From: a virus
Taxonomy: Duplodnaviria; Heunggongvirae; Uroviricota; Caudoviricetes
Length of the DNA: 20,554 bases
Strand: one strand, 5' to 3'
IMG/VR virus record: IMGVR_UViG_2541047172_000030
Of the stretch, positions 19,155 through 19,179 are shown piece by piece; positions within the stretch are counted from its first letter, which is position 1, and every line of letters begins with the position of its first letter. Position numbers and translations under genes: made by a program. The notes under the pieces are model-generated. The model saw nothing but the letters and a program-made list of their open reading frames with translations, had not been told where the DNA came from and did no database searches.

Positions 19155-19179
19155 AATCGATCGTTTTTGTCGATCGATT
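19155..19179. promoter_or_regulatory. Perfect 9-bp inverted repeat AATCGATCG-N7-CGATCGATT containing two GATC (Dam) sites, about 45 bp upstream of com
   Basis: Read directly from the sequence. Its position upstream of com-mom recalls the Dam-methylation-dependent control region of the Mu mom operon. Confidence 0.45.

Follow-up and report, generated by a model that had tools for sequence, protein, structure and literature searches.

What is the role of a perfect palindrome, with a target site for Dam methylation in each arm, that lies just upstream of the com-mom operon in a Mu-like prophage of Escherichia coli O157? The Mom protein protects phage DNA against many restriction enzymes but is toxic if mistimed, and the control of Mu mom by Dam and OxyR is a textbook case of methylation-dependent regulation. 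The palindrome occupies positions 19155-19179 of the window (the whole stretch of 20,554 nucleotides analysed here) and reads AATCGATCG-TTTTTGT-CGATCGATT. An earlier note on this DNA had described it as a perfect 9-bp inverted repeat with a GATC in each arm, about 45 bp before com, and had taken it for a possible variant of the Dam-dependent Mu operator. The sequence bears out the repeat, whose arms are separated by a 7-nt spacer, and the measured distance to the ATG of com (19223), 43 nt, fits as well.

The com-mom operon and its prophage

The window represents the right half of the Mu-like prophage. A total of 135 complete E. coli records, many from O157:H7, match region 18900-20250 with an identity of 99% or more. 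The prophage region was found in 233 of the 5,426 complete E. coli genomes, among them numerous O157:H7 strains and further producers of Shiga toxin. The insertion sites vary among the genomes and the match stops at about 20243-20245, the prophage right end, as would be expected of a transposable phage. The O157 Mu-like phage Sp18 has been named as encoding Mom and its regulators (PMC3299994). In its left half, the prophage encodes an activator of the Mor/C family that is 39% identical to Mu C (L003 8245-8670).

The palindrome is located upstream of com-mom at the right end of this Mu-like genome, in a region that can be aligned with the Mu mom region, and the mom gene of the window is 71% identical to Mu mom at the DNA level. 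The features of the region are listed in Table 1. Since a terminator-like hairpin on the plus strand precedes the control region, com-mom appears to have its own promoter. The predicted RNA stem that encloses the GTG start of mom would be the expected setting for Com-dependent translation of mom.

Table 1. Features of the com-mom region, in window coordinates
Feature	Position	Strand	Remarks
Intrinsic-terminator-like hairpin with T-rich tail	18922-18951	+	13-pair stem with 6 G-C pairs; upstream of the control region
Alternative promoter, ATGACT-17-TATCAA	19114-19142	+	Inferred from sequence; would place the palindrome at about +6 to +30
Candidate distal OxyR half-site, ATTTGTTGTATCAAT	19129-19143		Without GATC; 7/10; 31 bp centre-to-centre from the palindrome
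Palindrome, left arm AATCGATCG	19155-19163		GATC at 19159-19162
Candidate promoter-proximal OxyR dimer half-site, 15-mer ATCGTTTTTGTCGAT	19160-19174		7/10 against the consensus; spacing to the distal half-site 31 bp
Palindrome, right arm CGATCGATT	19171-19179		GATC at 19172-19175
Candidate -10 of a com-mom promoter, CATCAA	19192-19197	+	Inferred; start would be at about 19204, with the GATCs at about -45 and -32
com Shine-Dalgarno, AGGAGG	19207-19212	+	Read from sequence; conserved in alignment A3
com	19223-19423	+	66-aa zinc-ribbon translational activator; Pfam PF10122 Zn_ribbon_Com, E = 1.9e-12; RefSeq Com family
Predicted RNA stem enclosing the mom GTG start	19351-19382	+	Fold -13.3 kcal/mol, z = -1.4, weak alone
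mom	19377-20114	+	245-aa DNA adenine modification enzyme; GTG start, overlaps com; Pfam PF25680 Mom, E = 4e-77

Several other elements were observed in this part of the window. Repeated GTATCAAA motifs are present just inside the prophage right end (20140-20554), and outside the prophage end lies the 3' end of a gene for a TonB-dependent receptor (20279-20554), whose PF00593 score, 23.9 bits, is below the curated cut-off of 27 bits. On the minus strand, an ORF of 154 aa (18644-19108) corresponds to a RefSeq hypothetical protein without any Pfam match and has a zinc-ribbon-like C-terminus (CPAC...CPAC). The true gene may be shorter than this ORF, which spans both a perfect hairpin of 11 bp (18923-18950) and an inverted repeat of 10 bp (18959-18994). 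A search of the window against Rfam at the gathering thresholds returned no family, and the only match, at 18945-19069, was at chance level (E = 0.09).

The palindrome and its expectation by chance

The arrangement GATC-N9-GATC occurs once in the window, at the palindrome, and the motif has a single copy in the entire prophage of about 39 kb, which argues against a general late-promoter element. By chance, GATC-N9-GATC is expected about 0.24 times per window, and at least one copy was obtained in 21% of the simulated sequences; scaled by our own arithmetic to the com upstream region of about 115 bp, the expectation falls to about 0.001. Perfect 9-bp inverted repeats with loops of 3-10 nt are found at five distinct places in the window (10 nested hits, with 0.8 expected). 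Judged from the window sequence alone, a chance origin of the palindrome is excluded only moderately, and it is the comparative evidence, and not the single-sequence statistics, that decides that the palindrome is real.

Note that three further GATCs, at 19002, 19037 and 19048, had been overlooked by the earlier note. They surround a minus-strand promoter-like sequence, TTGACT-16-TAGGAT (19030..19003), within window positions 19002-19051; one of them overlaps the -10 end of this site, and a similar element is present in L034. A second ATCG-N7-CGAT, gATCGAGAACGGCGAT, which carries one GATC, is located at 18748-18762 within the minus-strand ORF and is probably a chance match. Region 13700-18540 is almost devoid of GATC (of the 76 sites of the window, only 2 fall within these 4.8 kb), which suggests DNA of a different origin; it covers the invertible tail-fibre region, a recombinase gene and a 679-aa DUF6645 gene. 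The palindrome is itself flanked by an imperfect inverted repeat (19091-19121 and 19187-19216; 78% over 23 nt, and extending by eye to about 30 nt), with CCTCC in the left arm and GGAGG, the com Shine-Dalgarno, in the right arm. We rejected this repeat as an anti-Shine-Dalgarno/Shine-Dalgarno structure: the left arm is not conserved in the relatives, being mutated without compensation in L053 and replaced in L075 and L180, and an RNA structure formed by the repeat is unlikely.

The GATC pair is kept in almost all enterobacterial com cassettes

In a pattern scan of viral contigs, 16 loci had the dyad immediately before com. Since such a scan selects for the motif, the search was repeated starting from the Com protein. 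With one genome per species, this search gave 37 loci, among which only two enterobacterial cassettes, from Citrobacter and Salmonella, carry the GATC pair. In a third locus, which is Chuche-like and belongs to a record titled Vagococcus, a deletion between GATCGAT repeats has removed two of the three GATCs. In this 37-locus search no GATC pair was found upstream of com in Haemophilus, Pasteurella, Halomonas/Vreelandella, Acinetobacter, Marinomonas or the other loci. Among viral contigs, the Com search gave 80 loci with 49 distinct upstream regions. Here all members of the window family carry the pair, at -64 relative to the com ATG (one variant has it at -70), as do all members of a second Mu-like family, at -63 to -65, and most members of the P2-like Chuche family, at -64. 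Almost all enterobacterial com cassettes thus keep the GATC pair in searches made without the pattern, and the sole locus with the pair besides them encodes a distant Com (L235, with GATCGactaaagCGATC).

The alignments locate this conservation precisely. In an alignment of 15 distinct com upstream regions (A3), invariant columns are densest at 19158-19178 (18 of 21), and the 6 nt just downstream of 19178 vary freely. When four com cassette families, including Mu and a P2-like phage, were aligned together with agn43 (A2), CGATCG and GATCGAT were invariant. These data bear on the idea that the palindrome is a functionless product of overlapping ClaI/PvuI-type self-complementary words in an AT-rich spacer. 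Since ATCGATCG is self-complementary, short repeats readily yield palindromes, and the single-sequence statistics given above are not overwhelming. However, the operator and its fixed distance from com are conserved among families whose Com proteins share only 65-76% identity with that of the window and whose flanks cannot be aligned, and we regard an origin by chance as extremely unlikely.

The changes seen in the arms speak to another possibility, namely that the palindrome acts as a nucleic-acid hairpin, either as an intrinsic terminator on the minus strand or as a stem in the com leader RNA. A terminator scan did call the palindrome on the minus strand (9-pair stem, tail CGATTTGTTT), the predicted stems reach -11.4 kcal/mol (plus strand) and -10.3 kcal/mol (minus strand), and the palindrome would be transcribed if the upstream candidate promoter were used. 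However, the fold z-scores are just -1.3 and -1.4, the minus-strand call is weak, with a poor U-tract, and the minus strand downstream of mom holds nothing for which a terminator would be needed there. Moreover, the GATCs are kept and the pairing is not: Mu has CGATCG...AGATCG, L191 and L194 have AACGATCG against CGATCGAT, L193 and L195 have CGATCA, and L176 has CGATCTAT. Since these arm changes are uncompensated, the sequence is what is conserved, and not its pairing, and a function as a hairpin is very doubtful.

The genes that follow com and the GATC-pair operator are of three kinds. In the window and in Mu this gene is mom; at the right end of other Mu-like elements (L034, L124 and L190-195) it encodes a C5-cytosine methyltransferase (PF00145), and in the Chuche family, which belongs to P2-like phages, an N6/N4 methyltransferase (PF01555). 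In Chuche, com is located between a hok-like gene and the integrase. Judging from these sequences, the operator-com cassette appears to be portable among enterobacterial prophages, in front of three kinds of DNA-modification genes. Mu-like and P2-like phages differ in their late activators and yet have this operator in common, which points to a host factor. A mom homologue of the Aeromonas phage pAEv1818 has neither com nor a GATC pair upstream, and a paper on M.EcoGII gave no link to com.

Cassettes with the operator include L005 (1400-1690), L034 (8340-9600), L124, L130, L190-L195 and L196-L217. The operator has been lost, in part or entirely, in some natural variants: L132 (2400-2500), L218 and L221 have a deletion between the GATCGAT repeats, and in L203 GATC II has become GAAC. 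L176 combines a G-to-T change in the right arm with a weakened Shine-Dalgarno (GGAGG to GAAGG). In L218, L221, L203 and L176 the changes are located at about 1390-1500 in each.

The palindrome resembles one half of an OxyR site

OxyR, a LysR-type regulator of the host, binds as a tetramer on two dimer sites. Half-sites were scored against the OxyR consensus ATAGnTnnnAnCTAT at its 10 specified positions. A score of at least 7/10 is reached at 30 of 20,540 window positions, and the only pair of such half-sites with a spacing of 31-32 bp in the window is the one formed by 19129-19143 and 19160-19174. A pair of this kind was present in 14% of the whole-window simulations and in 1.8% of the simulated 331-nt sequences with the local AT-rich composition. 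The GATCs at 19159 and 19172 flank the proximal 15-mer in the same GATCG-N7-CGATC arrangement as in gtr and agn43. In the distal half-site the outer AT...AT columns are invariant in alignment A2, and the half-site is unchanged in all the window-family variants. The two half-sites are spaced for a tetramer. Their match of 7/10 is at the bottom of the range for functional OxyR half-sites, and the distal one is located in AT-rich DNA, where such scores are commoner. The functional half-sites of opvAB match 7-10 of the 10 consensus positions (PMC4856963). The operator is likely to extend over 19129-19174, about 46 bp, with the palindrome as its proximal half.

Scored in the same way, Mu reaches 7/10 in both its proximal and its distal half-site, 31 bp apart as in the window, and phage Chuche 8/10 and 7/10, also at 31 bp. 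The half-sites of agn43 (flu) of E. coli K-12 score 8/10 each, at 32 bp, and those of gtr of the Salmonella phage P22 8/10 (A and C) and 10/10 (B), at 32 bp for both A-B and B-C. The likeness to agn43 is almost complete: outside the 7-nt spacer, its site ATCGATCGtttatatCGATCGAT and the window sequence ATCGATCGtttttgtCGATCGAT are identical, with ATCGATCG-N7-CGATCGAT common to both. The distal half-site of agn43 contains a third GATC, whereas that of the window has none. In P22 gtr, OxyR(A), TGATCGgtaacaaCGATCA, and OxyR(C), TGATCGcttgtatCGATCA, have the same GATCG-N7-CGATC architecture as the window, and Chuche has this core too. At agn43, OxyR represses and methylation of the GATCs lifts the repression (PMC3764049; PMC13337833), and at gtr, Dam methylation of the probes in vitro made the binding of OxyR negligible (PMC2909390).

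The dyad could also be bound by another protein, either a different LysR-type regulator or a phage factor, for example a late activator of the C/Mor family, in which case the GATCs would be relevant to that protein or have no role. In support of this, ATCG-N7-CGAT also fits the generic LysR box T-N11-A, and GATC methylation hinders the binding of HdfR, which is also a LysR factor (PMC6735912). In addition, the dyad is placed roughly where Mu C binds relative to com, and the low identity of the prophage C orthologue to Mu C (39%) would leave room for a different recognition site. On the other hand, the site is near-identical to the OxyR site of agn43, the prophage contains no second copy of the motif, neither before lys or I nor elsewhere, and the same operator is found in P2-like phages without a Mor/C-family activator at that locus. 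We consider recognition by another protein quite improbable.

Candidate promoters and the late activator

A sigma-70 scan of the plus strand from 18960 to 19222 identified no promoter, and neither of the two candidates in Table 1 passes it. The candidate -10 at 19192-19197 reads TATCAT in L174 and L177, and TATCAA in L180. With this promoter, the GATCs would be placed almost exactly as in gtr, where they are at -46 and -33 (PMC2909390), and the half-site centres would be at about -37 and -68; by analogy, this arrangement would resemble the repressing OxyR(BC) configuration of gtr. The alternative promoter, ATGACT-17-TATCAA, is conserved in all the window-family variants, including L179 and L180, whose farther upstream flank differs. 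With the alternative promoter the palindrome would have what we take to be the arrangement of agn43, whose OxyR site is presumably just downstream of the transcription start. Since 19129-19174 overlaps both candidates, an OxyR tetramer bound there would obstruct RNA polymerase directly, whichever promoter is used. The weakness of the promoter hexamers suggests a continued requirement for an activator, which would presumably be the C orthologue.

Upstream of both lys and I there is another motif, CCGCAAARCCYGCC, that is not found before com. This motif, which is likely to be a late-promoter element, is present at L003 8227-8240 and 299-312 (minus strand of the locus), before the lysozyme and protease (I) genes, with extended similarity upstream; the pair recalls what we take to be a 10-bp match between Mu Plys and PI. 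The palindrome was rejected as a site for a late activator of the Mor/C family, given its single copy in the prophage and the lack of the lys/I motif before com. Note that this leaves room for C dependence, since the motif shared by lys and I of Mu also seems, as far as seen, to be absent from Pmom.

A probable Dam-blocked OxyR operator

Our results suggest that the palindrome is, with good probability, the promoter-proximal half of an OxyR site with a Dam target in each arm, methylation of which would relieve an OxyR block of com-mom. This reading is supported because the site is near-identical to that of agn43, shares its architecture with gtr and is conserved across com families. In the mechanism that we propose, the palindrome and the half-site 31 bp upstream (19129-19143) would form a tetramer site of about 46 bp over a weak com-mom promoter. 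On unmethylated, and probably also on hemimethylated DNA, OxyR would be bound and the transcription of the toxic mom operon would be blocked. Methylation of both GATCs by Dam would exclude OxyR, and the promoter could then fire, probably with the additional requirement for the C-type late activator of the prophage. Com would then activate the translation of mom. That OxyR binds, that methylation affects it, where the promoter is placed and that an activator is required are all deduced here from the sequence and from the analogy with known operators. The variants without GATCs (L132, L218, L221 and L203) persist, which counts against control by OxyR and Dam. Moreover, methylation of the sites is to be expected in a dam+ lysogen, which may limit the role of OxyR in vivo.

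For the palindrome itself, the result is mostly confirmatory. Its interest lies in an operator that survives in compact form, overlapping the putative promoter, in the prophage of 233 of 5,426 complete E. coli genomes. A bolder proposal is that the two OxyR half-sites, the GATC pair, the weak promoter and com together make up a portable epigenetic switch that generates heritable ON and OFF subpopulations of lysogens, that is, a Dam/OxyR 'phasevarion'. Such ON/OFF switching is conceivable because the compact operator would sit on the promoter as in agn43 and gtr BC, without a Mu-type C box, and we put it forward as a speculation that is rather unlikely to hold. If true, Mu-like and P2-like enterobacterial prophages would drive Mom, C5-cytosine and N6/N4 methyltransferases by one block, and the subpopulations of lysogens would differ in genome-wide DNA modification, so that the operator would be more than a timing device for lytic growth. 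We searched the literature for methylomes in which GATCs of this prophage are unmethylated, with no relevant result. DNA modification encoded by prophages may be heterogeneous in a manner that depends on Dam and OxyR, and the natural series of cassettes should be useful for studying both how Dam/OxyR switches are constructed and whether prophage DNA-modification genes are heterogeneously expressed in lysogens.

Comparison with Mu, agn43 and gtr

Alignment with the Mu mom control region, which had been proposed earlier as a check, pairs the two GATCs of the window with GATC II and III of Mu. In Mu these read GATCGgtaatacAGATCGAT, within GATCGgtaatacAGATCGATT, and have the same 13-bp spacing as the GATCs of the window, where the corresponding sequence is ATCAATTAAAcaaatcgaatcGATCGtttttgtCGATCGATT. 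Both have a ATCAATTAAA block ahead of the GATC pair and the same GATCGAT(T) right arm, so that the homologous block reads ATCAATTAAA...CGATCG-N7-(C/A)GATCGATT. Together with the closeness of the dyad to the agn43 and gtr sites, this alignment lends support to the earlier proposal of a Mu-type, Dam-dependent variant operator.

Mu has three GATCs, to which OxyR binds when they are unmethylated, and the window two, as had been noted; the position of Mu GATC I is occupied by AATT in the window. The greater proximity to com also holds: the GATCs start 64 and 51 nt before the com ATG in the window, and 109, 91 and 78 nt before it in Mu. The pair is about 27 bp nearer to com than that of Mu, and the distance from the last GATC to the Shine-Dalgarno is 31 nt, against 64 in Mu. 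The palindromic arrangement, however, had been listed as a departure from Mu and is not one, since Mu holds the same dyad in imperfect form, GATCG-N7-AGATC, and the window holds it perfectly. The dyad TTAT-N6-ATAA, which we take to be the C-binding site, is present in Mu (L001 697-710) within the annotated C-dependent promoter and absent in the window, whose control region has no room for a Mu-type C box.

The other two systems differ from the window in setting and in layout. agn43 is a chromosomal adhesin gene with demonstrated heritable ON/OFF switching, whereas the window contains a prophage DNA-modification operon. In gtr, as in the window, two GATCs lie 13 bp apart within a half-site, and the half-sites are spaced at 32 bp, compared to 31 bp in the window. 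gtr has a third half-site, OxyR(A), which provides an alternative activating mode and true phase variation, and a third half-site was not found in the com upstream region of the window. Three refinements of the earlier picture are supported by these sequence comparisons: the dyad is also present in Mu, it would be one half of a bipartite OxyR site, and the layout is compact, without a Mu-type C box. The DNA-modification operon in the Mu-like prophage of E. coli O157 is most likely under the same kind of control as that of Mu, with a more compact layout.
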